DNA from: Rhodanobacteraceae bacterium
Lineage (GTDB): Bacteria; Pseudomonadota; Gammaproteobacteria; Xanthomonadales; Ahniellaceae
Assembly: GCA_016708465.1 (NCBI GenBank)
Contig: JADJFT010000001.1
Span: 249,680-313,679, forward strand
Length of the DNA stretch: 64,000 nt
Direction of reading: 5' to 3'
Shown here: positions 1-58,988 of the stretch, piece by piece
How the letters are laid out: each line of letters begins with the position of its first letter
Position numbering within the stretch: position 1 is the stretch's first letter
Position numbers and translations under genes: made by a program
Notes under the pieces: model-generated
The model's database searches: none
Told to the model about the DNA's origin: nothing
What the model saw: the letters and a program-made list of their open reading frames with translations, nothing else

Positions 1-2816
1 ACTGGTGGTGCCGGCAAGTCTTCGGTGACCGATGAACTGTTGAACCGATTTCTCGCCAGTTTTCCGGACATGCGTATCGCCGTCATCTCGGTCGATCCGA
101 CTCGGCGTCGTACCGGTGGTGCGCTGCTCGGCGACCGCATCCGCATGAACTCGCTGCGCTCGAAGCACGTGTTCATGCGCTCAATGGCGACCCGTCGCCA
201 GCATGTCGCGACCAATATCGTGCTCAAGGGATTGCATCGCTTTCCTGCGTGGCCAAGGCTATGACTTGGTGATGGTCGAGACCGCTGGCATCGGGCAGAG
301 CGACTCCGAGATCGTCGATCTCGTCGATTTCCCGGTGTATGTGATGACCAGCGATTTCGGTGCGCCGAGTCAACTCGAAAAGATCGACATGCTCGACTAT
401 GCCGAACTCGTGGTGCTGAACAAATTCGACAAGCGCGGTGCCGAGGATGCTCTGCGTGATGTCCGCAAGCAGTGGAAGCGCAACCGCTTGGCGTTCAAGT
501 TGGCCGACCAAGATGTGCCGGTCTATCCGACTATTGCCAGCCAGTTCAATGATCCCGGTATCGGTTGGATGTTTTCAAACCTGTGCCGGCTGATGCGCGC
601 AAAGCTGCAGTTGCCCGAGTCGAAGTGGACGCCGCAGATCGATACCTCGCTGCGTGAGCCACGCGCCACCGTGCTGATCCCGGGCCAGCGGACACGCTAT
701 CTCGCCGAGATCGCCGAACAAGGCCGCGGCATCAACCGCATGATCGAATCGCAGTCGGAAACCGCGAGTCGGGCGCAGAGCTACTTCGACACGCTGCGTG
801 ACATTGAAGACCCGGCATTGCCAAAGGCGCTGGATCTCTACGCGGTTGCTGCATTGTCCGGCGAGAGTGATCGATTCCTGTTGACGCTGCGCCAACGCTA
901 CAACGACGCCATCAAATCGCTCTCGAACGATGCGCTGAATGTGCTGCGCGATTGGCCGATTCGGCGGGCCTCGATCACGAACGAATTCAATGAATACACG
1001 GTGCGTGACAAGGTCATCCGTGTCGAGAATTACCGCGAGTCGTTGTCGCACCAGAAGATCCCGAAAATCGCAGCGCCAACCCTGCGCGATTGGGGCGACC
1101 AACTGCGCTTTCTGCAAAAGGAAAACCTGCCGGGAGCCTATCCCTACACAGGCGGTGTCTATCCGTATCGCCGCAGCGGCGAAGATCCGACGCGCATGTT
1201 CGCTGGCGAAGGTACGCCAGAACGTACCAATCGCCGCTTTCATTATTTGAGCGTTGGTCAACCGACAGCGCGCCTGTCGACGGCTTTCGATTCGGTGACC
1301 TTGTACGGCGAAGACCCGGCACCGCGCCCGGATATTTTTGGCAAGATCGGCAATTCCGGGGCTCGCCACGCTCGACGACATGAAGAAGCTGTATTCGGGC
1401 TTTGACCTGTGTGCGCCAACGACCTCGGTGTCGATGACGATCAATGGGCCGGCGCCGATGATCTTGGCGATGTTCATGAATACCGCGATCGATCAGCAGA
1501 TCGAGAAATATCTGCGTGCCGATCAGTCACGTTGGGACCGCGCCCACGACATCATCGAAAAATGCTACGAAGGCCGCCATCGCCCGAGTTATCACGGCAT
1601 GTTGCCGGACGGTAACGACGGCCTCGGTCTCGGCCTGCTCGGTATCACCGGTGACCAAGTGGTGGCGCCCGAGATCTACGCGAACATCAAGGCGGAGACC
1701 CTGCAATCCGTTCGCGGTACCGTGCAGGCCGACATTCTGAAAGAGGATCAGGCCCAGAACACCTGCATTTTCTCGACCGAATTCGCGCTGCGTATGATGG
1801 GCGACATCCAACAGTATTTCGTCGATCAGAAGGTTAGAAATTTCTACTCGGTATCGATCTCCGGATATCACATTGCCGAAGCCGGTGCGAACCCGATTTC
1901 GCAACTCGCATTCACGTTGTCGAATGGGTTCACGATTGTCGAGTACTACCTCGCGCGCGGCATGAAGATCGACGACTTCGCGCCGAATTTGAGCTTCTTC
2001 TTCTCGAACGGCATGGACCCCGAATACACCGTGATCGGCCGTGTCGCACGCCGCATTTGGGCACGCGCCATGCGTGAACGCTACGGCGCGAATGAGCGCA
2101 GCCAGATGCTCAAGTACCACATCCAGACATCGGGGCGCTCGCTGCATGCGCAGGAGATCCAGTTCAACGACATTCGCACAACCTTGCAGGCGCTGTACGC
2201 CCTGTTCGACAACTGCAATTCGCTACATACAAATGCCTATGACGAAGCGATCACCACACCCACCGAGGAGTCGGTGCGGCGTGCCGTTGCCATTCAGTTG
2301 ATCATCAACCGCGAGTTGGGTCTGAACTTCTGCGAGAACCCGTGGCAGGGCAGCTTCGTGGTTGAAGCATTGACCGATATCGTCGAGGAGGCGGTGTACA
2401 AGGAATTCGAGGCGATCAGCGAACGCGGCGGCGTGCTCGGCGCGATGGACACGATGTACCAGCGCGGCAAGATCCAGGAAGAGTCAATGTTCTACGAGCA
2501 GAAGAAGCATGATGGCTCGCTGCCGTTGATCGGCGTCAACACCTACCTGCCGCGCGAACACGCCGGTGAAGTTGCGACCGAGATCGAACTCATCCGTTCG
2601 ACGCCGGAAGAAAAACAGCAGCAGATCGACAATGTGCTGACGTTCCAGTCGTTACGTAACCACTATGCCGCCGACGGCCTGACCGAATTGCAGTCCACCG
2701 CCCGTCGTCGCGACAATCTGTTCAACGCGCTGATCGAAGCGGTGAAGACGCATTCCCTCGGCCAGATCAGCCACGCGCTCTACGACGTCGGCGGTGAATA
2801 CCGCAGGAATATGTGA
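1..2816 (+). pseudogene. icmF: IcmF-type fused isobutyryl-CoA mutase (MeaB-like G-domain plus B12-dependent mutase barrel). The 5' end lies outside the window. The frame is broken twice by +1 insertions, possibly assembly errors.
   Basis: Frame 1 from nt 1 reads [14 protein letters not shown] (P-loop). ORF 203-1405 continues with [16 protein letters not shown]...VVLNKFDK (G-domain). ORF 1338-2816 is the mutase barrel ([28 protein letters not shown]...). Frame switches sit at GGG 228-230 and GGGG 1358-1361; removing one G at each gives ...[17 protein letters not shown]... and ...[13 protein letters not shown].... Confidence 0.85.
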
Positions 2817-3000: not shown

Positions 3001-3166
3001 TCACATGGCGCCATTGGTGCGGTCGCTGACACCGCACTCACGCGGGCAATCTGGGCCTCGATCCGGGCCATGACTTCCTCATGCGGATGCTCGGCCGTAG
3101 GTCGTCGATGGTGGCCTGAATCTCGGCGGCCAGCCATGCGGTGTGGTTCTCCTGGGCCGCGGTCAC
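3000..3166 (-). pseudogene. Frameshifted remnant of a small RHH/ParD-like 'stability determinant' antitoxin.
   Basis: The minus strand reads VTAAQENHTAWLAAEIQATIDDLRPS, then in the next frame IPHEEVMARIEAQIARV. The pattern (W....v.a.idD.rp.IPHeeVmA.i.a.I) is typical of short antitoxin-like proteins. No intact N-terminus or clean stop is present. Confidence 0.25.
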
Positions 3167-3588
3167 TGCGCAGCCTCCCACGGATTGATGACGTTCAGCC
3201 CGGCCGCCTCAAAAGAACTGGTGTCGCGGGTGGCAACGGTGAAGCCGTTGGCAAGGGCGACGGCCGCAATGAAGGCGTCGGCCGTTTCGATGGCCAAGCC
3301 AGCAGTGCGGGACTTGGCCAGCAGCTCGGCATACGCCTTCGTACAAGCCATATCGAACGACAACACCCGATTGGCGAACATCGGCAGCAGTCGCTTTTCC
3401 AAGTTCTCATGCAGGCCGTCCCGGCGCTTTCCGGCTGGCATCAGCGCGATACCGGCACGCAGCTCGGCTACGGTGATCGCGGACAGATAAAGCGTTTCCA
3501 GCGCTTGCGCGTCGATCCAGTCAAGGACGCGGGTATTGGGCGCTTGACGCTGCGGCTCCGAAATCACGTTCGTATCGAGCAGAATCAT
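3163..3588 (-). CDS. vapC: PIN-domain ribonuclease toxin, VapC/FitB-like.
   Basis: 141-aa ORF MILLDTNVISEPQR...TVAELRAGIA...ATRDTSSFEAAG, with the conserved acidic PIN residues (LLDTNV, AE, ATRD). ATGA overlap with the upstream antitoxin gene. Confidence 0.85.
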   Translation of the reverse strand: MILLDTNVISEPQRQAPNTRVLDWIDAQALETLYLSAITVAELRAGIALMPAGKRRDGLHENLEKRLLPMFANRVLSFDMACTKAYAELLAKSRTAGLAIETADAFIAAVALANGFTVATRDTSSFEAAGLNVINPWEAAQ

Positions 3589-3842
3589 TCGAAGCTCACC
3601 GCACGGGCCGGAGACTTGATGCGCGCACGCTCAAACAAGGCGTGTTCTTCATCGGTCAGGCCGCCAGCCTCGCGGGCGATGGAAGCCAGGAACGAGCCGA
3701 GTTTCACGCGGCCCTCGGGCCTCGCTGCCTTCTCTAAGATGGAGCGGATTTCGGCCTCGGTGCTGCGGCCATGCTGGGCGGCTTGGATTCGGATGGCCCG
3801 ATGCACCTCATCGGGCAGATTTCTTACATTCACGTTTGCCAT
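3585..3842 (-). CDS. vapB: RHH/Arc-type antitoxin, VapB/FitA-like.
   Basis: MANVNVRNLPDEVHRAIRIQAAQHGRSTEAEIRSILEKA is the classic FitA/plasmid-stability RHH N-terminus. I prefer ATG 3842 over ATG 3857 because GGAG (3852-3855, minus strand) lies 9 nt upstream. Confidence 0.8.
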   Translation of the reverse strand: MANVNVRNLPDEVHRAIRIQAAQHGRSTEAEIRSILEKAARPEGRVKLGSFLASIAREAGGLTDEEHALFERARIKSPARAVSFE

Positions 3843-3863
3843 TTGGTATATCTCCATTCATGG

Positions 3864-4182: not shown

Positions 4183-5100
4183 ATGTCCATTGCGGCCAGC
4201 TATCCCGTCGGCACTCCCGGAAAAGCCTGGGGCGACTCTGAAAAGTCCGAATGGCGTTCGCGCCAGCGCAAGCTGCGTAGTTACGCCGACGACGTGTTGA
4301 GCGTCGTCGAGCGGCTGCGCGATCGCTTCGACGTGCAGCAATATGGCGAAATCGGCTACGACGACGCGCATTACCCGCTGATGGCGATTCGTAATCGCGA
4401 TTGGAATGAGGCATTGCCGTATGTGCTGGTTACCGGCGGCGTGCATGGCTACGAGACCAGCGGCGTGCATGGCGCATTGCAGTTTGTCGCAGAGCACGCC
4501 GAGCGCTATGCCGGGCGTGTCAATCTGCTGGTCGCAGCCTGTGTCAGCCCGTGGGCATATGAGCGCATCCATCGATGGAACGCGAATGCGATCGACCCGA
4601 ATCGTGCATTCCGCGAACCCAGCCCAGCTGCGGAATCGGCAGCGCTGATGCGTTTCACCTTGCCGTGGCGCGATCGCTTCGTCGTACACATCGACCTGCA
4701 CGAAACCACCGATAGCGATGAAACCGAATTCCGCCCGGCGTTGGCGGCACGCGACGGCAAAGCGTTCGAGCCGGAAGGCATCCCCGATGGCTTTTATCTG
4801 GTCGACGACAGCGAAAACCCGCAGCCGGCATTCCAGAGCGCGATCATTACCGCTGTCGCACAGGTCACACACATCGCGCCGGCCGATGGCAAGGGCGAGA
4901 TCATCGGTTCCACCGTGGTGGCGCCAGGCGTCATCGAATATCCGTTCAAGCGACTCGGCCTCTGCGCTGGGATGACCCATGCACGCTACACCACCACTAC
5001 CGAGGTCTACCCGGACAGCCCGCGCGCCACACCCGAACAGTGCAACGCTGCGCAGGTCGCGGCGGTGTCTGCGGCGATCGACTTCATGCTCGCCGCATGA
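4183..5100 (+). CDS. M14-family zinc metallocarboxypeptidase (succinylglutamate desuccinylase/aspartoacylase-like fold).
   Basis: 305 aa with zinc ligand motifs GGVHGYETSG (HxxE) and HIDLHETTD. Confidence 0.8.
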   Translation: MSIAASYPVGTPGKAWGDSEKSEWRSRQRKLRSYADDVLSVVERLRDRFDVQQYGEIGYDDAHYPLMAIRNRDWNEALPYVLVTGGVHGYETSGVHGALQFVAEHAERYAGRVNLLVAACVSPWAYERIHRWNANAIDPNRAFREPSPAAESAALMRFTLPWRDRFVVHIDLHETTDSDETEFRPALAARDGKAFEPEGIPDGFYLVDDSENPQPAFQSAIITAVAQVTHIAPADGKGEIIGSTVVAPGVIEYPFKRLGLCAGMTHARYTTTTEVYPDSPRATPEQCNAAQVAAVSAAIDFMLAA

Positions 5101-5651
5101 CTGTCGTACTGACCGACTTTGCGCGCCCGCGCCTGTTCCCTCGTGAGCCAAGGCGCAACACCATCCAGGATATTTCGGCGGATGAGTTCGAGCGCTACCT
5201 CAACGCGCACGAACCGCTGAGGGTCGTGGATGGCTACGCGTCGTTTTGCAAGCTGCACGTCCACCGCAATTGGACCTCGACACGCTGCTTGACTGTGCCG
5301 ATCAACGACGCCAATCGCCACCTGTTGCGCTCGGACTACGAGGCGCGCAGCAGTACCGAATTACCGGTGCTGGTGCGCTGGTTCGAAGGCATCGAACCGC
5401 CGGTTGCCGACTATCTCGTCGCCATTCTCTACAGCCGCGAACAGATCGCGAAAGAGGGCACGTCAATCGTCGCAGACTGGGGCATCGTTGGCTGCATGTA
5501 CACCAGCGAACCTGAGGAAACACCGATGGCCCCGATCACGATGCTGCGTAATGCGCTGGGCGTCGACGAAGGCGGCTCGGGCGTGCCGATCGACCGTGAC
5601 GCTTACCAGCGCAGCGTCGAGTTCTGGCGCAGCCACGCGAATTGGCGATAA
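5097..5651 (+). CDS. Conserved hypothetical protein, possibly DUF3228-like.
   Basis: ATG 5097 overlaps the M14 stop codon (ATGA). 184 aa with ordinary composition and good codon-position GC pattern. Family assignment is uncertain. Confidence 0.6.
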   Translation: MTVVLTDFARPRLFPREPRRNTIQDISADEFERYLNAHEPLRVVDGYASFCKLHVHRNWTSTRCLTVPINDANRHLLRSDYEARSSTELPVLVRWFEGIEPPVADYLVAILYSREQIAKEGTSIVADWGIVGCMYTSEPEETPMAPITMLRNALGVDEGGSGVPIDRDAYQRSVEFWRSHANWR

Positions 5652-5676
5652 CACTGGTTGCCAGCACGCGATGACA

Positions 5677-5706
5677 CTTGCAGCAGCGCCGAGAAGCCGC
5701 TGCAAG
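5677..5706. terminator. Hairpin between convergent genes, possibly a bidirectional terminator.
   Basis: cttgcagc (5677-5684) pairs with gctgcaag (5699-5706). No U-tract follows. Confidence 0.3.
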
Positions 5707-5729
5707 CGACGATCTGCGATGCGCAATGA

Positions 5730-7439
5730 TTATTCGAGCGTGAACCACTGCACTTCGACGCGACGATTGAGATCACCGTCGCTACCGGCCGGTTCTTCCC
5801 AGCCGCGACCGACGACTTCGATGCGATCGGTGGCGAGCCCGGGGTGCTTTTTCAGCAGTGCATCGCGCACCGATTGTGAACGCTGACGCGACAATTCCAT
5901 CGCCTTCAACGCCATGCTGCGCACTAACGCTTGGCCACCCTCACGTTCGAATTCACCGATGCGGGCGTTGTCGACGTGGCCACGCAAGACCACGATCGAG
6001 CCGGGACTGACCTGCAAAAAGTTTTTGATCGAATCCAGATACCCGAGATTTTGTTGGGCATCGCGGTCGAGCGTCGCCGAGTTCGGTTCAAAGAAGAAGC
6101 GGATGTCCTTGCTTAACAGGGCATCGCCTTCGAGTGAGCTGCCTTCGCGCGTCTTGATCGGCGCAATGGCGATGGTCTGCTTCGCAAACTCGGCTTTGCC
6201 CTTGAGCGCATCGAGTTGCTTGGCATCAATGAAGCGTGCCGGATCCGCCGGATTTTTGATCAGCTTGCCGTAGGCCAGCACCGATGACTGGAAAATGCCG
6301 TTGAACGAACCGGCAGAATCGATGGTGCCAGCGAAGAACGCCTGATTCTCCGGCAGGTTGGAGAAGTGCACCTTTGAGAGTTCGTCACGGGTGTCGGCAT
6401 CACTCCACTTGAACGCCTTGGAGATGGTTGCGACATTCGCTGCGGGCTCGTCGCGCACCCGGCGATTACCGTCCAGCAGGCCGTGCACCAAGCCTTTCAC
6501 CCAGTCCGTATGTGCGGCCGCAAAGCCTTTGTTGACCACCAGCAGGTCGGCAATGATCAACAGGTTGCGGTTCGACACCAGCATCTTCGCCTTACCGGCG
6601 GACGCTTCGATCACCTCATCGGTGCGTGGCGACCAGCCGATGCAGCCGTTCAAGCGGGCACTGGCGTTGAGTTCGTGCTCGTAGGCATCGCAGGCGACGT
6701 CGTTGTCTTCGTAAAACACCAGACCGAGCTGGTCAGGATTCGGGCGTGCATCGAGATCGCGCAGCACCACCACCGGGACGTTCGCTTCGGAAGCGAGATA
6801 ACGGATGAAAAACTCACTTTCGTTGAACTGCGCGGCCGCCAGCACCTTGCCTTTGAGCTGGTTGATGCTGCTGATGCCGGTATCGACCACCACCATGTCG
6901 GCGCCGCGCGAGAATCCGATCTGCGCCGGCACCGTCACTTCAAACTGGCGGCCGAGCGCGGCCAACACGTCGGCAGTGGTTACGCTCGCGGCGAGCTTGC
7001 CGTTGTTGAGCTTGGACCAACTCTCTTCTTCGCTCAGTGTCAGGTGAACTTGGAAGCCATAATTTTTCGCGAAAAACGAGTCCGGGTTGGGATCGAGGCC
7101 GCCATTCGCGACCACCAGTCCGGCATATCCAGCGTATTCGCTGATGTCGACATCGATGACGGCTCCGGTCGGCTGATAGGTGGCGGCGGCATCCAGCGTC
7201 GGCAGACCGTCGACCGGTTCAATCGGTGTCGGGGCGTCGCCATCAACGGCAGGGTTCACCGTGGGATTTCCCGGCGTCGTGGATTGCGTCGTTGTCGACG
7301 TATTGGTCGCGTCGGCTGCTTTTTTGTCGCGCAGCATCAACCATCCGCCCATCGCGATCAGTGCCACGATCAGCAATAAGGTGATCGCCGTGCCGGCGGA
7401 ATTGCCACGCATCAAGAATCTGGATGATCGAGTGTTCAT
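5730..7439 (-). CDS. Inner-membrane-anchored protein: periplasmic-binding-protein-like domain plus C-terminal OmpA-like peptidoglycan-binding domain.
   Basis: 569 aa. N-terminal TM segment (AITLLLIVALIAMGGWLML), Thr/Pro-rich linker, central SBP-like region, and C-terminal OmpA_C signature (LSRQRSQSVRDALL...DLNRRVEVQW). The start overlaps the upstream stop (ATGA). Confidence 0.85.
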   Translation of the reverse strand: MNTRSSRFLMRGNSAGTAITLLLIVALIAMGGWLMLRDKKAADATNTSTTTQSTTPGNPTVNPAVDGDAPTPIEPVDGLPTLDAAATYQPTGAVIDVDISEYAGYAGLVVANGGLDPNPDSFFAKNYGFQVHLTLSEEESWSKLNNGKLAASVTTADVLAALGRQFEVTVPAQIGFSRGADMVVVDTGISSINQLKGKVLAAAQFNESEFFIRYLASEANVPVVVLRDLDARPNPDQLGLVFYEDNDVACDAYEHELNASARLNGCIGWSPRTDEVIEASAGKAKMLVSNRNLLIIADLLVVNKGFAAAHTDWVKGLVHGLLDGNRRVRDEPAANVATISKAFKWSDADTRDELSKVHFSNLPENQAFFAGTIDSAGSFNGIFQSSVLAYGKLIKNPADPARFIDAKQLDALKGKAEFAKQTIAIAPIKTREGSSLEGDALLSKDIRFFFEPNSATLDRDAQQNLGYLDSIKNFLQVSPGSIVVLRGHVDNARIGEFEREGGQALVRSMALKAMELSRQRSQSVRDALLKKHPGLATDRIEVVGRGWEEPAGSDGDLNRRVEVQWFTLE

Positions 7440-8293
7440 GACGAGGCTCCGGTGGATAAGGGCGGTGGCTTGCGGGCGCTGTTACGCACGCGTTCGGGGA
7501 GGCGCTGGGCGGTGCTCGACTCGAATACGCCGAGCAGGTCGCGCTGGCTATCGAGCCAGCGATGGGTTTCATTGAACGAGGTCGTCAGCGCATTTAACGA
7601 CGCGCCAACGGTGTCATCGTCGGAGGCGAGCAGTGCCTGCTCGCGGATCAGCGCGAGTTGGTGATCGATGCGCGCCAGTTCGGCTTCGACCTGTTCCAGT
7701 CGATTGGCTGCATCGGCATGGGCCTGCTGGCGTTGGTCGATGACTTGTTGCTGCTGTTCTAGGCTGCGCTTGAGTTCCGGGCTGATATTGACTTGGGGTG
7801 ATACGCGCAGCGATTTGTTTTCCTGGTCGGCAAGTTGCGTCCGTTCGCGCGCAGCGGTGTCGATGACGCGGTTGATCGAGACCAAGGCGACCAGCAGTCG
7901 CAGGTGCAGCCAGACCAATTGCTCGACACTGTCGCTCTGACTGTCGAGCAGCGGAGTGCGCTTTAGCGTGTCGAGGATCTCGCTGGCGCGGCGTTCGATC
8001 TCCTGATGGCGGCGCTTTTCCGGGTAACCGAGTTGCGCCACCATCTCGTCGTAACGCGTGTCCATCGGATTGACCTCAGCCGCGGACGCAACGTTGCCGG
8101 CATCCACGGTCTTGCGGAAGCGAACATTGCCGGCGAGCAGTTTCAGATAGCCGAGTTCGAGCCCGGCACCGACTAGCCACAGCCCCGGATTGACGAAGAC
8201 GCCAAGCAGACCGATCGCCGCCAGGCCGAACCAGTTGGGTGGCACCGGCATGCCCAGCGGTCGCGCATTGAAGGCGGCCCACCAATACTTCAT
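7436..8293 (-). CDS. Membrane protein with two N-terminal hydrophobic helices and a long Q/E/R-rich coiled coil; family unknown.
   Basis: 285 aa with FGLAAIGLLGVFV and GLWLVGAGLELGYL near the N-terminus, followed by heptad-like sequence (LEQQQQVIDQRQQAHADAANRLEQVEAELARIDHQLALIREQ). ATGA overlaps with both neighbouring genes. Confidence 0.75.
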   Translation of the reverse strand: MKYWWAAFNARPLGMPVPPNWFGLAAIGLLGVFVNPGLWLVGAGLELGYLKLLAGNVRFRKTVDAGNVASAAEVNPMDTRYDEMVAQLGYPEKRRHQEIERRASEILDTLKRTPLLDSQSDSVEQLVWLHLRLLVALVSINRVIDTAARERTQLADQENKSLRVSPQVNISPELKRSLEQQQQVIDQRQQAHADAANRLEQVEAELARIDHQLALIREQALLASDDDTVGASLNALTTSFNETHRWLDSQRDLLGVFESSTAQRLPERVRNSARKPPPLSTGASS

Positions 8294-9939
8294 GCATTGC
8301 CACCTTGAGCCAGCGCGCGCAAGGCGGGCGGCACGAACTGCATGTCGGTGGCTTCGCGAATCGCGATTCGCATCTGGAAGTCGAGTACATCCGCGGCGAC
8401 CGGTGGTTGATAGCCATCAAGGCAAGCGGCCAGCGCTGCGGCCGGTGTCTCATTCGCGGTACGCACGCGTCGATACACCTTAACCGACAGCGCTTCGGCA
8501 GCACCCGGCGTCAGCAAAGTCGGTAGCGCTAACGCATCCATGGCCTGCGGATCGATCGTGATGTCGAGACGTTTCAGCAAAGCGTTCAACAACGCGGCGC
8601 TCTCGGCCTGGGTGGTGGTTGGTAGCAAGGGCACTTTGACGTCGATTCGACCGGGGCGTTTTAGATCGACTTCGATCAGGTCCGGGCGCGACGTTGCGAG
8701 AATCCAGACCACGCGGCCGCGGTTCGATGCATCACTCATTTCCTGCGCGATCATCGAATACAGGCGACCGGACAAGCCGCTGTCGCCGCTGCCGGAATCG
8801 CGTTTGCCGAGGCTCTGGTCGGCCTCATCGATGAACACGATGCAGCGACCGAGCGCACGGATCAACCGGAAGATTTTCTCGAGGTTACCTTCGCTGGAAC
8901 CAACCCAGCGGTCGCGGAAGTTCTTGAGCTTCACCACCGGCACGCCAGCCTCGCCGGCGAGACATTCGACCAGAAAGGTCTTGCCGGTGCCGACCGGGCC
9001 GCAAAACAGGTAACCCATCGGCATCGCCCGCAAATCGTTCGCTTGCCATAGCGCGATGTCTTGGCGCAGCCAGGTCTTCAGTGCTTCCTGCGCGTGATAG
9101 TGCGCGAGCGTCTTGTTTGATTCGATAAATTCGATCAGACCGGCCGAATCTGCTTCGACCATTTGTTTTTTTGCCGCCACCCAATCGGATTGATTCAGTG
9201 GCTTGCCTTCATGTTCGCGCAGTTTTACCAATGCGTTCAATGCAGTCACGGTGACGCCGGCGAGCAGGGGTGCCGCCTTGCTGCCGTCGTCATCAACGAA
9301 CGCCTTGGGATTGTCGATACGCAGTTGCGCCAGCGCTTGTTCGATTACCGCGATATCCGGCAACGGCACGCGCACCCGCGCGACGCGCGGGTTGGTCGCG
9401 ATCAGTGGATGCAGATCGTTCAAATTGTCGGCAATCAGAAAACTGGCGAAGGGCAGGTCGGTGAATGGCGGTTCAGCGGCCCAATCGCGGACCATGCTGG
9501 CTAGGCTCGCGGTATCGAATTCGCCTTGGCGGTTCGCCGGCAGGATTTGGTCGGCACCGCGCAGGATGCATGCGATGTGTTCGACTTTGTCGCGGCCCAT
9601 GGCACTCAGGTTGGCGCGATAACGCAGATAACGCGTGATCAACTCGACCGCCGCGCGCGGTTCTCGCGTGTTTGCGCCGAGCAGTTGCGCCCCCGGCCAC
9701 TTCCGGAAGGCGTCGCTGGTGCGCGGCACGCTGAGGCCGTTGCCGGGGTCGTACAGGAATACCAATTCGAAGCGGGACAGCAGTTGCACATCGAGAAACG
9801 CAGTCAGTGACAAGAAGCGGCCGCGACTCGGGAAGCGGTCGGCGACGTTGCCGTACAGCACAAACTGTCCCTGCGCGCCGCTCTCGTAAGCCAGCGCAAG
9901 TTCACGAGCCCAGTTGGGTGCGTCGCTTTCGAGCGGCAT
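8290..9939 (-). CDS. Classical-clade AAA+ ATPase with a ~300-aa N-terminal extension.
   Basis: 549 aa. Walker A GPVGTGKT (nt 8977-9000), Walker B IVFIDEAD (nt 8818-8841), and second region of homology ATSRPDLIEVDLKRPGRID. No GAFTGA loop and no C-terminal HTH, so it is not a PspF-type enhancer-binding protein. Confidence 0.9.
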   Translation of the reverse strand: MPLESDAPNWARELALAYESGAQGQFVLYGNVADRFPSRGRFLSLTAFLDVQLLSRFELVFLYDPGNGLSVPRTSDAFRKWPGAQLLGANTREPRAAVELITRYLRYRANLSAMGRDKVEHIACILRGADQILPANRQGEFDTASLASMVRDWAAEPPFTDLPFASFLIADNLNDLHPLIATNPRVARVRVPLPDIAVIEQALAQLRIDNPKAFVDDDGSKAAPLLAGVTVTALNALVKLREHEGKPLNQSDWVAAKKQMVEADSAGLIEFIESNKTLAHYHAQEALKTWLRQDIALWQANDLRAMPMGYLFCGPVGTGKTFLVECLAGEAGVPVVKLKNFRDRWVGSSEGNLEKIFRLIRALGRCIVFIDEADQSLGKRDSGSGDSGLSGRLYSMIAQEMSDASNRGRVVWILATSRPDLIEVDLKRPGRIDVKVPLLPTTTQAESAALLNALLKRLDITIDPQAMDALALPTLLTPGAAEALSVKVYRRVRTANETPAAALAACLDGYQPPVAADVLDFQMRIAIREATDMQFVPPALRALAQGGNA

Positions 9940-9942
9940 CGA

Positions 9943-10701
9943 TCAACCCTGCTGTGATTCGGACGGTTTTTCCGCTGTCGCGCCCATGCTGCGCGATGCC
10001 TCCGCTGGCGTCGCCTCGGTGCCGAGCGAGAGACCTTCGGCCGCGGCAAAATCCGCGAGCGCTTGGTCGGCGAGCGCCGTCATTTCGGCTTCCTTGAGGT
10101 TGATGTCGGCCATGTCGATCGAGTCTTTGGCAACGCGCGCCCGACCGGACGCTTTGTTGCGTTCTTCTTCGACCATGTCGTGCAGACGGTTGAGCGTGTC
10201 GCCGGAGCCGCCGATCGAACCGATCATGCCTGCAGCCATCTCGTTCATCTCGGCCATCGCCTTCTTCATCTTCATGTCGTTGATCGCGCCCTTGAGGCTT
10301 TCGATTTTCGCGCGCGCCGCATTGACTGCGACATCCCGCGCCTTGATCAAATCCTTGTAGGTGCCTTCGGCGGCTTCGAGTTGCTTGCGATTCTCGGTGA
10401 GTTCGCGTGTCACTGTTTGCAAGCGCAGCGCATATTGGCCGGCCGCCTGCGTGTTGCCCGCACGCAAATGCGCCGTGGTTTTGGCGCGCAGTTCCGATTC
10501 TTCCGATGCGAGCTTGCGCACCTGGCTCATCAAGCGCTCGGCGAGTCCGGCGTGACCCGCCAGGCCTTGGTTGTAGCCGGCAATTTGCTTACGCAGGTTT
10601 TCTTGCTCCAGTTCCAACAGCGCTTCCGGATTCCGCTTTTCCACATCCTTCACGAACATCGCGAAGAACCCTTTGAACACATTGATCAGGCGCTGGAACA
10701 T
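9943..10701 (-). CDS. PspA/IM30-family protein (ESCRT-III superfamily).
   Basis: ATG 10701 is preceded by AAGGAG. MFQRLINVFKGFFAMFVKDVEKRNPEALLELEQENLRKQ matches the PspA/IM30 N-terminal amphipathic helix plus hairpin start. The body is all-helical and heptad-rich, with an Ala/acidic C-terminal tail. The stop lies 3 nt before the AAA+ start. Confidence 0.85.
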   Translation of the reverse strand: MFQRLINVFKGFFAMFVKDVEKRNPEALLELEQENLRKQIAGYNQGLAGHAGLAERLMSQVRKLASEESELRAKTTAHLRAGNTQAAGQYALRLQTVTRELTENRKQLEAAEGTYKDLIKARDVAVNAARAKIESLKGAINDMKMKKAMAEMNEMAAGMIGSIGGSGDTLNRLHDMVEEERNKASGRARVAKDSIDMADINLKEAEMTALADQALADFAAAEGLSLGTEATPAEASRSMGATAEKPSESQQG

Positions 10702-10989
10702 GAAATCTCCTTGCAACAGACTGTGAGCCTCGCGGCGACGCCCGCCAACTTAGCGGGTTTGTGCGTTGGTGCAAGGGGTTCGCGGCAACCAGAGATCAAT
10801 CAGTTCGCTGCCGCATCCGATTTCCGGCATATTTCCGGAACCTGGCCATCGCTACCAAGTGTTGCGCCAACTGGGACGAGCCGGTGCCGATCGTGATCTG
10901 TCGTTCGCAGCGTCTTGACCTGTCGCGCCATAATCTCCGGATAGATTGAACAGGCGCGTCGGAACCCCGATGCGCGCAACGGAGCTGGC

Positions 10990-12051
10990 ATGAGCGCTAC
11001 ACGATCGACACGCAACCTCGTTCTGGCCGGACTGTCCGCAGTGTTTTTTGCGGCTTGCAGTAGCTCGTCGCAACAACAGGCGCAACGCGGCGGTTCGCCG
11101 GTGACGGTGCGCAGCACGGTGATCGTGGCCAGCGATTGGCAGGACAGCGTGCAGGCACTCGGTACCGCCAAGGCGAATGAATCGCTGACGATCACCGCCA
11201 AGGTCAGCGAGACCGTGCAGAAAGTCGCATTCGACAGCGGTGATTTCGTCGAAGCCGGACAGGTGCTGGTCGATCTCACCGGGAAGGTGCAGCTCGCCGG
11301 GCTGGAAGAGGCGCGCGCCGCCTACAAGGAAGCCGAGCAACAACTGAAGCGCGGCGAGGAACTTGCTGCCCGCCACTTGGTCCCCGGCAGCCAGATTGAC
11401 ACGCAACGCGCGACGCGCGACGCCGCACGTGCGCGCATGGATCAAGTTCGTGCACAGTTGTCGGATCGTGTCATCACCGCGCCGTTCGATGGCGTGCTCG
11501 GCTTGCGTCAGGTCAGTCCCGGGGCGCTGGTCACACCGGGCACGGCGATCACGACATTGGACGATGTCTCGATCATCAAGCTGGATTTCTCGGTGCCAGA
11601 AACGCTGATCGCGGCCTTGGCGCCCGGTCAGGAAGTCGCGGCCCACAGTGCGGCTTATCCCGCCGAATTATTCAGCGGCGTGCTGCGCACGATTGATTCG
11701 CGGGTTGATCCCGTCACGCGGTCGGTGATGGTGCGTGCAGAGATTCCAAACCCGGAACGACGCTTGCGTCCCGGTATGTTACTCACCGTTGATGTGCGGC
11801 GTGCACCGCGTCAAGCCTTGGCCCTGCCAGAGTTGGCGTTGCTGCAGATCGGGCGCAATAGTTTCGTGTTCCGCGTAGCCGCTGATGGCAGCGTGGCGCA
11901 GGTCCCGGTGATGATCGGTGCACGCGAACGCGGTCGCGTTGAGATTGTCGACGGCATCGCCGCCGGCGATCGCGTCGTGGTTGAAGGCACCGTGAAACTG
12001 CGACCGGGCGCAAAGGTGGTCGAAGCGGGTACGAACCCGCCGGCACATTGA
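10990..12051 (+). CDS. RND efflux periplasmic adaptor (membrane-fusion protein) lipoprotein.
   Basis: 353 aa with a lipobox (LSAVFFAAC-SSS) and HlyD/AcrA-type hairpin and barrel segments (ITAPFDGVLGLRQVSPGALV). Confidence 0.9.
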   Translation: MSATRSTRNLVLAGLSAVFFAACSSSSQQQAQRGGSPVTVRSTVIVASDWQDSVQALGTAKANESLTITAKVSETVQKVAFDSGDFVEAGQVLVDLTGKVQLAGLEEARAAYKEAEQQLKRGEELAARHLVPGSQIDTQRATRDAARARMDQVRAQLSDRVITAPFDGVLGLRQVSPGALVTPGTAITTLDDVSIIKLDFSVPETLIAALAPGQEVAAHSAAYPAELFSGVLRTIDSRVDPVTRSVMVRAEIPNPERRLRPGMLLTVDVRRAPRQALALPELALLQIGRNSFVFRVAADGSVAQVPVMIGARERGRVEIVDGIAAGDRVVVEGTVKLRPGAKVVEAGTNPPAH

Positions 12052-12061
12052 GGGCACGGCA

Positions 12062-15000
12062 ATGATGCTCTCCGATGTCTCCATCCGCCGCCCGGTATTT
12101 GCGACCGTCCTCAGTTTGATGCTGGTCGCGCTAGGGTTGATCGCGTTCACGCGGCTGCCGCTGCGCGAACTGCCGAACATCGATCCACCGATCGTGTCGG
12201 TCGATGTCAGCTATCCGGGCGCATCCGCTGGCGTTGTCGAGACCCGCGTGACCCAGGTGCTGGAAGATGCGCTGTCCGGTATCGAGGGTGTCGAGACCAT
12301 TCAGTCGCAAAGTCGTAACGGTCGTTCCAGCATCACGCTGGAATTTTCTTTGAATCGCGATATCGAAGGGGCGGCGAATGATGTGCGTGATGCTGTCAGC
12401 CGCGTCGCCGACCGTATGCCGCAGGAGGCAGATGCGCCGCAAGTCGCCAAAGTCGAGGGTGACGCCGACGTCATCCTGTGGCTGAATCTGAGTTCGCCAC
12501 AACTTGATTCCTTGGCGCTAACCGATTACGCCGGCCGCTACATTGTCGACCGGCTGTCCAGCATCGACGGCGTGGCGCAGTTGCGCATCGGTGGCAGCCA
12601 GCGTTACGCGATGCGTATCTGGTTGGATCGCGATGCGCTGGCCGCGCGTGGCCTGACCATCGCCGAAGTCGAAGCCGCCTTACGCGCAGAAAACGTCGAG
12701 TTGCCGGCCGGACGACTGGAATCGGATACCCGTGATTTCACCCTGCGGATCGACCGTGGTTATGTGCAGACGACCGATTTCGAAGCGTTGCCATTGCGCA
12801 AGGGCGCTGATGGCCACGTCATCCGGCTCGCCGAAGTAGCACGCGTCGCGATCGAGTCGACCGATCGCCGCGCCATGTTCCGCGGCAATGGGACACCACA
12901 GATTGGCCTCGGCGTGATCAAGACCTCGACCGCGAACAGCCTCGATGTCGCCAATTTGGTGAAGGCCGAAGTCGAGCGCATCAACGAGGGCTTGCCCGAG
13001 GGTATGAAGATCGGCGTGACTTTCGACAGCACGATCTTCATCGACGAAGCAGTGAAGCAGGTTTACAAGACCTTGTTCGAGGCGACTTTGCTGGTGGTGC
13101 TGGTGATCTGGTTGTTTCTCGGTTCGGTGCGTGCGGCGTTGGTGCCGGCGGTGACGGTGCCGGTGTGCCTGATCGCGTCGTTCATTGCGCTGTGGATGTT
13201 CGGGTTCTCGATCAATCTGTTGACCCTGCTGGCGTTGGTGCTGTCGATCGGACTGGTCGTTGATGACGCCATTGTCGTACTGGAAAACGCCCAGCGGCGT
13301 GCGGATCTTGGCGAACCGGTTTCAGTTGCAGCGCTGCGCGGTACTCGCCAGGTCGCGTTCGCGGTGATCGCAACCACGACGGTGTTAGTGGCGGTGTTTG
13401 TGCCGGTGTCGTTCATTGAGGGCAACAATGGCCGACTGTTCCGCGAACTTGCGGTGGCGTTGGCCGCTGCGGTTGCGATCTCAGCCTTCGTCGCGCTCAC
13501 CCTGACGCCGATGATGTGCTCGCTGCTGTTGCGTCGGCATGGCCAAGCCAGCGGTTTTTCCGAGCGCGTGGATGAACGCCTGAATGCGTTGGCCGGCGCT
13601 TATCGGCGCGTGCTGGAGCGGGTCATTGGTCACCCGAAGCGCTGGGTGTTGTTCATGCTCGTCGCGCTGGCGGGCAGCTATGGCTTGTCGACTCTGGTAC
13701 CGCGCGAATTGGCGCCGCCCGAGGATCGCGGTGCATTCTTCTTGTCCGTGGTCGGCCCCGAAGGGGCAGGTTTCGACTACACCGCGTCGCAAGTGCTGGA
13801 GGTCGAGAAGCTGTTGCTCAAGTACACCGGCGAGGGCCAGCCGATCGAGCGTGTCAACATCCGTGTTCCCGGAGGGTTCGGTGCCAGCGAGGAAATGCAT
13901 ACCGGGCAGGGTATCGTCGTGCTGAAACCGTTCGGACAGCGTGACCTGTCCACCAACGAGGTGGTCGAGCAGGTACGCGCCGACATGAATGCCATCGCTG
14001 GTGTGCGCGGACTGGCGCAGGTGCGCCAAGGACTAGTGCGCAGCCAAGGCCAGCCGTTTCAGGTGGTGATTGGCGGGCCCGATTACGCCGAACTCGCCAA
14101 CTGGCGCGATCGCTTGATGGCGCGCATGGAAAAGAATCCGGGCCTGTCCTCGGTTGATTCCGATTTCAAGGAAACCCGCCCGCAGATCCGGGTTTCAGTG
14201 GACCGCAACCGTGCCGCTGCGCTGGGTGTGTCGTTGGCGGACATCGGTCGAACTTTGGAAACCATGATGGGCTCGCGCCGCGTCACCACCTATGTTGAGG
14301 ATGGCGAGGAATACGACGTCATCCTGCAGGCCGAACGCGATGATCGCGCCGCACCGTCCGACCTGCGCAACCTCTACGTGCGTGCGCGCAGCGGCGAACT
14401 GATTCCGCTGGGCAGTGTGGTTTCGCTCAGCGAGTTGGCTGAACCGGGCAGCCTGAATCGCTTCAATCGCCTGCGCGCGATTACCGTGTCGGCGGCCATC
14501 GCGCCGGGATACACCTTGGGGCAGGCGATCGAATGGATCAGCCGAACCGCCAAGGAAGAACTGCCGCAGACCGCGCAAATCGACTTCAAGGGCGAGTCGC
14601 GCGAGTACCAACAGTCTGGCAGCGCGGTCCTGTTTACCTTCGCGTTGGCCTTGCTGGTTGTTTACCTGGTGCTCGCGGCGCAATTTGAAAGCTTTGTGCA
14701 CCCACTGGTGATCATGCTGACAGTGCCGTTGGCGGTGTTTGGTGCCTTCGTCGGTCTTGCTGTTACCGGGAATACGCTAAACCTGTTCAGTCAGATCGGC
14801 ATCATCATGTTGATCGGTTTGGCGGCAAAAAATGGCATCCTGATCGTTGAGTTCGCGAATCAACGTCGCGATGCCGGCCGGTCGGTGCGCGACGCGGTAC
14901 TCGAAGCCGCATCGACGCGCTTGCGTCCAATCCTGATGACCTCGATCGCCACTGCGGCAGGGGCCTTGCCGCTCGTGCTAGCGAACGGGCCTGGGTCGGC

Positions 15001-15175
15001 GAGCCGTGCCACGATCGGTGTCGTCGTCGCCTTCGGCGTGACCTTGTCGACCTTTCTGTCGCTGTTTGTGGTGCCCGCGTTCTATCTGTGGCTGGCTCCG
15101 TACACGCGTTCGCCGGAAGAGAAAACGCGCGAACTCGAACAACTCGAACATGCGACGCCGCCGGTGGAAAAGTAA
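12062..15175 (+). CDS. RND efflux permease, AcrB/AcrD/AcrF family.
   Basis: 1037 aa. MMLSDVSIRRPVFATVLSLMLVALG... is the canonical N-terminus, and the 12-TM pattern with two large loops is present. No outer-membrane factor or regulator is adjacent. Confidence 0.95.
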   Translation: MMLSDVSIRRPVFATVLSLMLVALGLIAFTRLPLRELPNIDPPIVSVDVSYPGASAGVVETRVTQVLEDALSGIEGVETIQSQSRNGRSSITLEFSLNRDIEGAANDVRDAVSRVADRMPQEADAPQVAKVEGDADVILWLNLSSPQLDSLALTDYAGRYIVDRLSSIDGVAQLRIGGSQRYAMRIWLDRDALAARGLTIAEVEAALRAENVELPAGRLESDTRDFTLRIDRGYVQTTDFEALPLRKGADGHVIRLAEVARVAIESTDRRAMFRGNGTPQIGLGVIKTSTANSLDVANLVKAEVERINEGLPEGMKIGVTFDSTIFIDEAVKQVYKTLFEATLLVVLVIWLFLGSVRAALVPAVTVPVCLIASFIALWMFGFSINLLTLLALVLSIGLVVDDAIVVLENAQRRADLGEPVSVAALRGTRQVAFAVIATTTVLVAVFVPVSFIEGNNGRLFRELAVALAAAVAISAFVALTLTPMMCSLLLRRHGQASGFSERVDERLNALAGAYRRVLERVIGHPKRWVLFMLVALAGSYGLSTLVPRELAPPEDRGAFFLSVVGPEGAGFDYTASQVLEVEKLLLKYTGEGQPIERVNIRVPGGFGASEEMHTGQGIVVLKPFGQRDLSTNEVVEQVRADMNAIAGVRGLAQVRQGLVRSQGQPFQVVIGGPDYAELANWRDRLMARMEKNPGLSSVDSDFKETRPQIRVSVDRNRAAALGVSLADIGRTLETMMGSRRVTTYVEDGEEYDVILQAERDDRAAPSDLRNLYVRARSGELIPLGSVVSLSELAEPGSLNRFNRLRAITVSAAIAPGYTLGQAIEWISRTAKEELPQTAQIDFKGESREYQQSGSAVLFTFALALLVVYLVLAAQFESFVHPLVIMLTVPLAVFGAFVGLAVTGNTLNLFSQIGIIMLIGLAAKNGILIVEFANQRRDAGRSVRDAVLEAASTRLRPILMTSIATAAGALPLVLANGPGSASRATIGVVVAFGVTLSTFLSLFVVPAFYLWLAPYTRSPEEKTRELEQLEHATPPVEK

Positions 15176-58295: not shown

Positions 58296-58981
58296 ATACG
58301 AATAACGACATCGTGCTTGCTGCCCACGGCGTGGCCAAGACCTATCACGAAACCGGCGTTGAAACGCCGGTATTTTCGGGCATCGACTTTGCCGTACGTG
58401 CCGGCGAAGCGATTGCCATCATGGGGGCCTCCGGTGCCGGCAAGAGCACGCTATTGCATCTGCTTGGTGGGCTCGACGTACCCGATTGCGGTGAAATTAC
58501 CGTCGCTGGCCAACGCATGAATGCGCTGAGTGACAGCGCGCGCGGTCGTCTGCGCAACGAGGCACTCGGTTTCGTCTACCAGTTTCACCACCTGCTGCCG
58601 GAATTCACAGCGCTCGAAAATGTGGCGATGCCGCTATTGATTCGCGGTTTGTCGGTGGCAGCGGCGAGGGCAGCGGCGCAGCAGATTCTCGATCGCGTCG
58701 GTCTAGGGGCACGGCTCGAACACAAACCCGGCGAACTTTCCGGTGGCGAGCGCCAGCGCGCTGCAATCGCACGGGCGCTGGTCACGACGCCGAAATGTGT
58801 ACTCGCCGACGAACCGACCGGTAACCTCGATGCCGGTAATTCCGATGCGATCTGCAGCATGTTGTTGGCGCTGAAGCGCGACCTCGGCACGGCCATCGTC
58901 ATCGTCACGCACTCACAAGAACTCGCTTCACGCATGGATCGCGTGCTCGAGCTGTGCGGTGGCAAGCTGGTTCCGCGCTGA
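58292..58981 (+). CDS. lolD: Lipoprotein-releasing system ATP-binding protein.
   Basis: ATG 58292 overlaps the permease stop (ATGA). GASGAGKSTLLH, LSGGERQRAAIARAL and LADEPTGNLD. Confidence 0.95.
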   Translation: MNTNNDIVLAAHGVAKTYHETGVETPVFSGIDFAVRAGEAIAIMGASGAGKSTLLHLLGGLDVPDCGEITVAGQRMNALSDSARGRLRNEALGFVYQFHHLLPEFTALENVAMPLLIRGLSVAAARAAAQQILDRVGLGARLEHKPGELSGGERQRAAIARALVTTPKCVLADEPTGNLDAGNSDAICSMLLALKRDLGTAIVIVTHSQELASRMDRVLELCGGKLVPR

Positions 58982-58988
58982 GCGATCG

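Follow-up and report, generated by a model that had tools for sequence, protein, structure and literature searches.

A four-gene cassette that links a PspA/IM30-family protein to a two-tier AAA+ ATPase is a candidate envelope-remodelling module in bacteria

A four-gene operon in the genome of a Rhodanobacteraceae bacterium provides a tractable candidate module in which to ask how bacterial polymers of the ESCRT-III type, those of PspA and Vipp1, are taken apart and recycled. The operon lies at positions 5730-10701 of a 64,000-nt stretch of contig JADJFT010000001.1, referred to here as the window, and runs on the minus strand throughout. It pairs a gene for a PspA-like protein with genes for an AAA+ ATPase and for two proteins predicted to reside in the inner membrane:

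9943..10701, minus strand: gene 1, PspA/IM30-family (ESCRT-III superfamily) protein, 252 amino acids (aa)
8290..9939, minus strand: gene 2, two-tier AAA+ ATPase, 549 aa
7436..8293, minus strand: gene 3, predicted hairpin-anchored inner-membrane coiled-coil protein, 285 aa, of no known family
5730..7439, minus strand: gene 4, predicted bitopic inner-membrane protein, 569 aa, with a transmembrane (TM) helix, a solute-binding domain and an OmpA domain

The genes are tightly packed. Read directly from the sequence, the junction of genes 1 and 2 is a 3-nt gap (TGAtcgATG), and the junctions of genes 2 and 3 (gcATGAag, 8290-8293) and of genes 3 and 4 (tcATGAac, 7436-7439) are 4-nt ATGA overlaps; the mechanically called open reading frame (ORF) of gene 1 reaches further upstream, to a TTG at 10716. 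An initial annotation of the window had given the same four ORF positions, the same gap and the same two overlaps, and all of its sequence-level statements proved correct. It had also taken the junctions to imply co-translation and probably a stoichiometric complex; we treat such a complex as putative.

The first question is whether this gene order means anything beyond one genome. An alignment of homologs of the ATPase was scanned against one genome per species, covering 185,579 species, and relatives were found in at least 528 species-level genomes from several phyla. The best 80 of these at least 528, that is, the best matches to the window ATPase, are called close loci here, and they are a biased selection whose counts are not population estimates. 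They come from Ahniellaceae and Lysobacterales metagenome-assembled genomes (MAGs; 84-91% identity), from Arenimonas, Pseudoxanthomonas, several Pseudomonas lineages and Steroidobacter, and further from the alphaproteobacterium Dongia, from Anaeromyxobacter, and from a Desulfatirhabdiaceae MAG and a Binatia MAG. Searches of these loci with the four window proteins (tblastn) recovered the complete set at 71 of the 80, with order and strand unchanged; at the remaining nine the array ends within about 400 nt of a contig end and is apparently cut, hence the complete cassette was present at all 71 testable loci. The packing is also retained: judged by ORF ends, genes 1 and 2 lie a median of 4 nt apart, an overlap of genes 2 and 3 is seen at 63 of 76 close loci (median -4 nt), and one of genes 3 and 4 at 25 of 71. 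Clustering of the ORFs that flank the 80 close loci showed only lineage-specific genes to be kept, with no ABC transporter genes among them. With no conserved flanking genes, the unit is therefore a self-contained four-gene cassette. The N-domain of the ATPase was also searched for in 72,556 plasmid records and 50,697 phage records and was found in neither set.

Deeper relatives were collected with a search based on a divergent ATPase alignment, followed by reading of the gene neighbourhoods, and with a scan of metagenomes analysed by tblastn; the latter yielded 80 loci seeded from a long-form ATPase, whose architecture frequencies are biased and indicative only. If P stands for PspA, A for the ATPase, C for the gene 3 homolog, S for the protein with a solute-binding domain (SBP) and an OmpA domain, and mB for an ABC permease and ATPase, at least six orders occur among the distant loci: PSmBCA, mBCAPS, CAPS, PACS (the order of the window), PCA and PA. 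The 21 distant loci with full flanks contain P in 19 cases, C in 17, S in 15 and mB in 11, and C adjoins A in every distant locus where both were detected. Co-occurrence through repeated rearrangement is strong evidence for a functional unit, and together with the close loci it supports the view, from gene neighbourhoods, that the four genes form a conserved functional unit and are not linked by chance. The initial annotation had named a failure of the four genes to co-occur in other genomes as one of the observations that would count against it; what we found is co-occurrence at every testable close locus and recurrence of the components at a distance. Its report that no pspF-, pspB- or pspC-like gene is present was likewise borne out, as none of the three was found beside the operon among the ORFs of the window or in the related loci.

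Some of the distant forms carry an additional gene after that of the ATPase, for a protein of about 227 aa without a family assignment (locus L082, 8752-9983; locus L084, 8593-9276; and several metagenome loci of the forms CAx and CAxP); in L082 it is followed by a gene for a TerB-domain protein. The protein of about 227 aa may be an extra, optional component of the system.

A system of this composition has been described before. Ravi et al. (mSystems 2024, preprint 2020; PMC11237479), in section 18, Text S2.2 and Table S3, list PspA together with an inactive-AAA/AAA protein, a TM protein termed Snf7-like and a PBPB-OmpA protein, with or without an ABC transporter, and propose ATP-dependent remodelling "comparable to Snf7 and VPS4". 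The proposal is a computational prediction, and the paper contains no experiments; the ABC permease and ATPase are placed in "longer operons" as an optional feature, and a link between membrane remodelling and solute transport is suggested. Their examples include OGG56892.1 and AEY64321.1, and the entry PspA->PBPB+OmpA->TM->ABC->TM+Snf7->inactive-AAA+AAA of Table S3 is the architecture of our loci L082 and L085, both of which read PspA-SBP/OmpA-permease-ABC-helical protein-AAA. Two window proteins have homologs in L082: gene 3 matches a 285-aa protein at 29% identity (E = 9e-29) and gene 4 matches an NMT1+OmpA protein (E = 1e-42). The window ATPase also has the inactive N-terminal AAA domain that was described, and the ATP-dependent, ESCRT-like membrane remodelling proposed for the window is the same idea.

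The window operon is thus, judged by sequence homology, a short-form member of this system, without the ABC permease and ATPase. Unlike the long forms it lacks this pair, as do all 80 close loci, and its order PspA-AAA-coiled coil-SBP/OmpA is not among the entries of Table S3 that were compared (PMC11237479). As far as computational work goes, the suggestion of novelty in the initial annotation therefore does not hold, since the components and the ESCRT-III/Vps4 analogy were already listed by Ravi et al. A search of a library of papers found no experimental study of the four-gene operon or of the pairing, nor the published functional study of exactly this operon whose existence the annotation had allowed for. 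According to a review from 2025 (PMC7619361), an ATPase of the Vps4 type "appears absent in bacteria". What is new here is the quantified linkage, a corrected anatomy of the ATPase, the definition of the short form and a lead from the tail of the PspA-like protein.

What kind of motor, then, does gene 2 encode? Its canonical AAA domain matches PF00004 with E = 9e-27 over residues 311-436, and this D2 domain (about aa 300-545) is of the active type, with a Walker A motif (GPVGTGKT), a pore loop (RWVG), a Walker B motif (IVFIDEAD) and arginine fingers (RPGR). The Walker A motif, the Walker B motif with D371-E372, the RPGR arginines R428/R431 and the pore-loop residues W345-V346-G347 are invariant in 30 homologs, and they recur in distant members. 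In NCBIfam the protein comes closest to CDC48, FtsH and PAN rather than to sigma54 activators, and neither a helix-turn-helix (HTH) family nor a sigma54-activator family was found in the protein with Pfam or NCBIfam. Our results support the assignment of gene 2 to the classical clade of AAA+ proteins and not to the PspF-type activators, in line with the initial annotation, which had noted the Walker motifs, the second region of homology, the absence of an HTH and the dissimilarity to PspF.

The initial annotation had left residues 1-300 undescribed. In an AlphaFold2 model built from 30 homologs (mean predicted local distance difference test score, pLDDT, 81; mostly 85-93 for residues 1-250), this region forms an AAA-like alpha/beta domain that begins near residue 20 and precedes the canonical AAA domain, and it is predicted to fold as a degenerate D1. 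In D1 (about aa 20-265), GNVADRF stands at the place of the P-loop, with no Lys-Thr and no DE Walker B, and across distant family members there is one Walker A motif per protein, always in D2. A Foldseek search with the full-length model aligned Rix7, p97/Cdc48 and Drg1/AFG2 over 566-634 columns (E 1e-17 to 1e-16, TM-score at most 0.59), with the N-terminal 300 residues superposing on D1 of Rix7 and p97. A profile search of the PDB gave Cdc48 as the best match (2e-36), and D2 is nearest to the D2 of Cdc48/p97.

The modelled architecture is accordingly described as a Cdc48/p97/Rix7-like build with a predicted dead D1, without an N-domain and without an MIT domain, and not as a member of the Vps4 family. 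It shares with the type II AAA+ proteins Cdc48/p97/VAT, Rix7 and Drg1/AFG2 the tandem D1-D2 arrangement and the full-length superposition; unlike Cdc48/p97 it lacks the N-terminal substrate- and adaptor-binding (double-psi-barrel) domain, with D1 starting at about residue 20, and its D1 lacks the Walker A lysine and the DE Walker B. The logic of an inactive D1 and an active D2 is comparable to that of PEX1/PEX6. The NCBIfam CDC48 score of 74.2 bits lies far below its cut-off of 802.65, and the CdvC score (35.7 bits, cut-off 650) is below those of CDC48, FtsH and PAN; no MIT family match was obtained with Pfam or NCBIfam, and Vps4 is not among the 60 best PDB matches listed. The initial annotation's Vps4-like ATPase therefore stands as far as the classical clade is concerned, as the Foldseek and profile comparisons place it there, and fails in its architecture, which is a Cdc48-like build with two AAA tiers, no MIT domain and a low CdvC score.

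The D1-like N-domain defines a moderately diverse family of its own: a search of 1.84 billion representatives gave 589 clusters at 50% identity (E <= 1e-3), and full-length members typically have 530-610 aa. One larger protein, P0480 (818 aa; locus L087, 7001-9457), from a Bacteroidota context, has two consecutive degenerate D1-like N-domains before the active AAA domain and no PspA gene nearby. An N-terminal PxW motif of the ATPases was considered as a correlate of a PspA partner and discarded as uninformative, the motif being near-universal whatever the partner.

Gene 1 encodes the presumed counterpart of this motor. It matches the Pfam family PspA_IM30 (PF04012) with 38.4 bits against a cut-off of 33.9, its residues 2-221 covering profile positions 3-217 of 220, and the PspA partners at the distant loci also belong to PF04012. 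No segment of the protein has a larger helical hydrophobic moment than residues 1-18, MFQRLINVFKGFFAMFVK (0.57; mean 0.25). These two results agree with the initial annotation, which had read gene 1 as a PspA/IM30 protein with an N-terminal amphipathic helix and had regarded a failure to hit PspA/IM30 profiles as an argument against its proposal.

Beyond the PspA core, the family alignment shows a C-terminus composed of a conserved helix (ALADQALADFAAxEG), a variable Pro/Ala-rich linker, an RSMG motif and a few terminal residues. The general form of this tail motif is [KR]-x-[MLI]-G, mostly with P next, RSMG being the form of the window. It lies 8-17 residues from the C-terminus in all 77 close PspA partners examined, against 3.3% of shuffled tails, and it is present in 40 of 41 distant PspA partners, spanning the PA, PCA, CAPS and PSmBCA forms. 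PspA of E. coli ends without the C-terminal linker and without the motif. Conserved, linear, specific to the ATPase-linked PspAs and placed where a flexible tail ends, the motif has the features expected of a docking or engagement signal for the ATPase, and it may act as one. The tail motif is a new lead from this analysis.

The remaining two proteins appear to provide the membrane setting. Hydropathy and an AlphaFold2 model (pLDDT 70.7) place two moderately hydrophobic helices in the gene 3 protein, at about residues 21-34 and 37-55 with NPG between them, followed in the model by three shorter helices, a long helical hairpin (114-164/172-225) and a further helix (229-253), which fits the two hydrophobic helices and the coiled coil of the initial annotation. 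Basic residues flank the hydrophobic hairpin on both sides, which suggests a cytoplasmic location for its two ends. The family comprises 2,461 homologs, none with a Pfam domain, and gene 3 itself gave no meaningful family match in Pfam, NCBIfam or PADLOC. A Foldseek search found no significant fold match (best E = 0.34, BAR/eisosome proteins).

The Snf7 assignment given by Ravi et al. to the counterpart of gene 3 may still hold, although our comparisons, which are weak for coiled-coil proteins of this kind, did not reproduce it. None of 31 family members matched a Snf7 or PspA Pfam family at E <= 1, and no ESCRT-III protein was among the PDB profile matches or the fold matches of gene 3. An hhalign comparison of the gene 3 family with the gene 1 family gave a probability of 5.8%, with low power, as the same set-up gives 3.4% for the control pair of the gene 1 family and E. 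coli PspA. By its placement as a putative membrane anchor or recruiter, gene 3 resembles LiaI (for LiaH) and PspBC, which anchor PspA homologs at the membrane (PMC7619361), and YdjI, for which Makarova et al. describe the same role, with the difference that it has no sequence relationship to any of these anchors. The alignment also shows, at residues 42-49 (GAGLELGY) in the second hydrophobic helix, an invariant E46 flanked by invariant glycines. A conserved acidic residue placed within the membrane brings to mind the proton-coupled stators MotB, TolR and ExbD, a resemblance that we mention as pure speculation.

Gene 4 has one strong TM helix by hydropathy (residues 18-36), followed by a Thr/Pro linker. 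Its middle part (about residues 100-410) is a solute-binding domain of the TauA/SsuA/NMT1 type (SsuA_fam, 7e-7), and an OmpA-like domain follows at about 445-565, which matches PF00691 with 43.4 bits (cut-off 27.2) and contains NRRVEV in the translation. The family profile against the PDB gave OmpA-like proteins at 1e-9 (Omp38, Pal, YiaD), TauA at 2e-4 (residues 119-324) and PomB/MotB at about 1e-3. The order of TM helix, periplasmic-binding-protein-like domain and OmpA_C domain (NRRVEV) is the one that the initial annotation had proposed. With this layout, the solute-binding domain would lie in the periplasm, held at the inner membrane on one side and, through predicted peptidoglycan binding, at the cell wall on the other. 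The N-terminal TM helix, the C-terminal OmpA-like domain and the weak PomB/MotB profile matches are shared with proteins of the MotB/PomB/TssL type; unlike those of the MotB type, gene 4 has a solute-binding domain of about 300 residues between the TM helix and the OmpA domain.

How does the cassette compare with the two systems that its parts bring to mind? Like ESCRT-III/Vps4 of eukaryotes and CdvB/CdvC of archaea, it pairs an ESCRT-III-superfamily protein with a neighbouring classical-clade AAA+ protein that has an aromatic pore loop, and its PspA has a flexible C-terminal tail with a short conserved motif at its end. ESCRT-III tails carry MIM motifs, which the tail motif of the window PspA parallels. 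The differences lie in the ATPase, which has two AAA tiers where Vps4 has one, lacks an MIT domain and is nearer by sequence to Cdc48 D2 than to CdvC, and in the addition of a predicted peptidoglycan-binding periplasmic partner. With the canonical Psp system of E. coli (PspF-PspABC, sigma54) the cassette shares a PspA-family effector that is tied genetically to an AAA+ protein and to inner-membrane partners. In contrast to that system, its AAA+ protein is of the classical-clade unfoldase type without a DNA-binding domain, pspB, pspC and a conserved sigma54 promoter are lacking, and its PspA extends into a C-terminal linker and a tail motif, both missing from PspA of E. coli.

We consider ATP-driven turnover of a PspA polymer at a peptidoglycan-anchored membrane platform to be the most likely mechanism, held tentatively and at a little less than an even chance. 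The PspA-like protein would bind the inner membrane through its N-terminal amphipathic helix and polymerise like other ESCRT-III-superfamily proteins. The ATPase would form a two-tier hexamer in which the degenerate D1 ring has a scaffolding role and threading of the substrate falls to the Trp-Val-Gly pore loop of the active D2 ring; the ATPase would engage PspA subunits, plausibly by the C-terminal [KR]-x-[MLI]-G-(P) tail, and extract or unfold them, leading to turnover or remodelling of the polymer. Its function would then be the job of Vps4, performed by a Cdc48-like motor of separate origin. The hydrophobic hairpin of gene 3 would hold this protein in the inner membrane, with its coiled coil reaching into the cytoplasm, and from there it would recruit or position the ATPase, nucleate PspA, or both. 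In the same membrane, the OmpA domain of gene 4 would tie the assembly to peptidoglycan and its solute-binding domain would sense a periplasmic ligand or the state of the envelope. The scheme builds on the observed identities of the parts, their co-occurrence, their coupling and the D2 motifs, and we infer from these every physical interaction in it and the direction of action. On this footing, the ATPase as the remodelling motor of the PspA polymer is a reasonable leading hypothesis.

A bolder form of this hypothesis is that bacteria have a true ESCRT-III disassembly machine independent of Vps4: a Cdc48-like hexamer with a degenerate D1 would recognise the [KR]-x-[MLI]-G-P tail of a dedicated PspA paralog, in an analogue of the MIM-MIT interaction, and thread it so as to recycle the polymer while seated on a coiled-coil adaptor and a peptidoglycan-tethered sensor, thereby coupling remodelling to the state of the wall or periplasm. 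We regard this full version as possible and, on balance, doubtful.

Several observations weigh against turnover of a PspA polymer as the task of the ATPase. The tightest gene adjacency is that of the ATPase with the coiled-coil gene, not with PspA, so the primary client could be gene 3. Members of the ATPase family without a PspA gene nearby (L084, L087) indicate that the family is not strictly dedicated to PspA. PspA binds and inhibits the AAA+ protein PspF, and the regulatory direction could thus be reversed in the cassette. The gene 1 family has no direct sequence match to solved PspA or Vipp1: neither the single protein nor the family profile matched solved PspA, Vipp1 or ESCRT-III structures among the PDB sequences, the hhalign probability for E. 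coli PspA is the 3.4% given above, and ESCRT-III membership comes from the Pfam profile alone. Finally, the tail motif might serve another partner.

The main rival explanation is a different division of labour, in which the ATPase would be a membrane-protein extraction or quality-control motor with the gene 3 protein or other membrane proteins as client or receptor, and PspA would be a regulator or adaptor, as E. coli PspA is for PspF, and not the substrate. Such a motor would account for the adjacency, usually with overlap, of the coiled-coil and ATPase genes in every order where both are found and for the ATPases without a neighbouring PspA, and its two-tier build would resemble that of Cdc48, Rix7 and Drg1, which pull proteins out of complexes; binding between PspA and PspF is itself established (PMC7619361). 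It fits less well with the presence of PspA at 19 of the 21 distant loci and at all close loci, or with a terminal motif on the PspA partners of the kind that AAA+ motors and adaptors recognise, and no feature of gene 3 marks it as a substrate for degradation or extraction; we judge this explanation rather unlikely. A solute-handling core, with the SBP-OmpA protein (and in long forms the ABC importer) at its centre, is less probable again. PspA and the ATPase would in that case protect or build up the membrane around this core, or would connect the state of the membrane with a periplasmic solute, and the SBP of the short form would be a leftover sensor. In the long forms the gene for an NMT1/TauA-type SBP-OmpA protein does stand in one array with genes for a BPD_transp_1 permease and an ABC ATPase, which follow it, a link between remodelling and transport is suggested in the cited sections of Ravi et al. 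(PMC11237479), and Makarova et al. note a gene for an SBP (ProX) in some archaeal ESCRT loci. Neither the window nor any of the 80 close loci has the ABC pair, however, only 11 of the 21 distant loci have it, and the PA and PCA forms have no SBP; transport therefore cannot be the invariant core.

A membrane-acting anti-phage or abortive-infection module was considered as well, given the toxin-antitoxin genes near the cassette (VapBC-type in the window, PemK together with TerB in L082, ParE in L085), weak PADLOC matches of the AAA domain to IetA, and a patchy distribution over several phyla at 60-70% identity that suggests horizontal transfer. The PADLOC matches do not extend beyond the generic AAA domain, and none of the components could be assigned to a defence family as such; the N-domain of the ATPase is absent from the plasmid and phage records searched; and in Pseudomonas the cassette sits at a fixed site beside putative RecB/RecD-like genes. 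With generic IetA matches only and no plasmid or phage copies, an identity as a defence system was rejected, and we consider it very improbable. Turnover of a PspA polymer thus remains the reading that we prefer, with the strength given above.

The regions on either side of the operon contain three further features:

10727..10778, minus strand: conserved upstream block, candidate promoter, with TTGCAC (10774-10769), a 16-nt spacer and TAAGTT (10752-10747)
10712-10707, minus strand: ribosome-binding site AAGGAG, read from the sequence, downstream of the promoter-like block
5675..5708, minus strand: stable RNA hairpin within the 78 nt that separate gene 4 from the convergent gene beyond it

The columns of the upstream block are invariant in an alignment of the window with four relatives (L002-L005), and the block is a candidate promoter by virtue of this conservation. 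TTGCAC-N16-TAAGTT is off the sigma70 consensus, and a scan for that consensus upstream of the operon found no site. Dependence on sigma54, as in canonical psp operons, was rejected: one match with two mismatches lies 153 nt upstream of gene 1, the window contains 39 sigma54-like matches against 37.9 expected, and over 75 loci such matches upstream of gene 1 were neither enriched relative to controls nor fixed in position. Matches at the chance rate fit the absence of pspF. The hairpin after gene 4 has a minimum free energy of -37.2 kcal/mol (z = -3.1 relative to shuffled sequences) and no U-tract, and the terminator scan did not call it; it could be a terminator or a stabiliser.

Downstream, two convergent plus-strand genes face the operon: 4183-5100, a weak AstE/AspA/M14-like hydrolase below the Pfam cut-offs, and 5040-5651, a clear DUF3228 protein (E = 2e-59). 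The two ORFs overlap by 61 nt, which is probably due to over-extension of an ORF and not to a frameshift, because they match different families. About 1.9 kb past the 3' end of the operon lies the VapBC-type pair (3163-3857, minus strand), in which the gene for the PIN toxin (3163-3588) overlaps that for a FitA-like ribbon-helix-helix antitoxin (3585-3857). Directly upstream of gene 1, a divergent RND efflux pair (10990-15175, plus strand) consists of an HlyD-type membrane-fusion protein (10990-12051), confirmed against Pfam, and a 1037-aa pump (12062-15175), judged to be of the RND type from its translation only; this pair is not kept beside the cassette in other lineages.

Elsewhere in the window at least two to three genes are interrupted by indels, as the initial annotation had remarked. 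A gene for an IcmF-like fused MeaB GTPase/methylmalonyl-CoA mutase (203-2816, plus strand) is split over ORFs 203-1405 and 1338-2816 in different frames; the mutase profile occupies positions 23-106 in the former and continues at 148-511 in the latter, and this continuity points to a frameshift near 1340-1400. The split could be an assembly indel or a pseudogene. A DeaD-type DEAD-box helicase gene (18702-20613, minus strand) is divided between ORFs 19672-20613 and 18702-19850, with Helicase_C profile positions 2-56 in one and 54-110 in the other, which likewise argues for a frameshift. A ComEC-like gene (58959-61267, plus strand) is apparently split too: the Competence domain enters at profile position 164 at residue 2 of ORF 60095-61267, the first part of the gene presumably lying in ORF 58959-60098. 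The initial annotation had pointed to the intactness of the operon among such genes, and we rejected this as a sign of selection. With at least three genes split by frameshifts in the roughly 59 kb that surround the operon, about 0.25 events are expected per 5 kb and the probability of none is about 0.78, so an intact 5-kb operon is expected by chance and carries no weight.

As a system in which to approach the recycling of ESCRT-III-type polymers in bacteria, the module has practical assets: it is compact and chromosomal, its ATPase has relatives in at least 528 species-level genomes, its D2 domain has all the motifs of a working translocase, its family-specific tail can be mutated, and its carriers include cultured strains of Pseudomonas, Pseudoxanthomonas, Arenimonas and Steroidobacter. 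Should the ATPase turn out not to remodel PspA, the module would still be an uncharacterised envelope system whose parts have been kept across phyla. If it does remodel PspA, Cdc48-like ancestors would have given rise to ATP-driven ESCRT-III dynamics on at least two occasions, and in these bacteria such dynamics would be physically linked to the cell wall.

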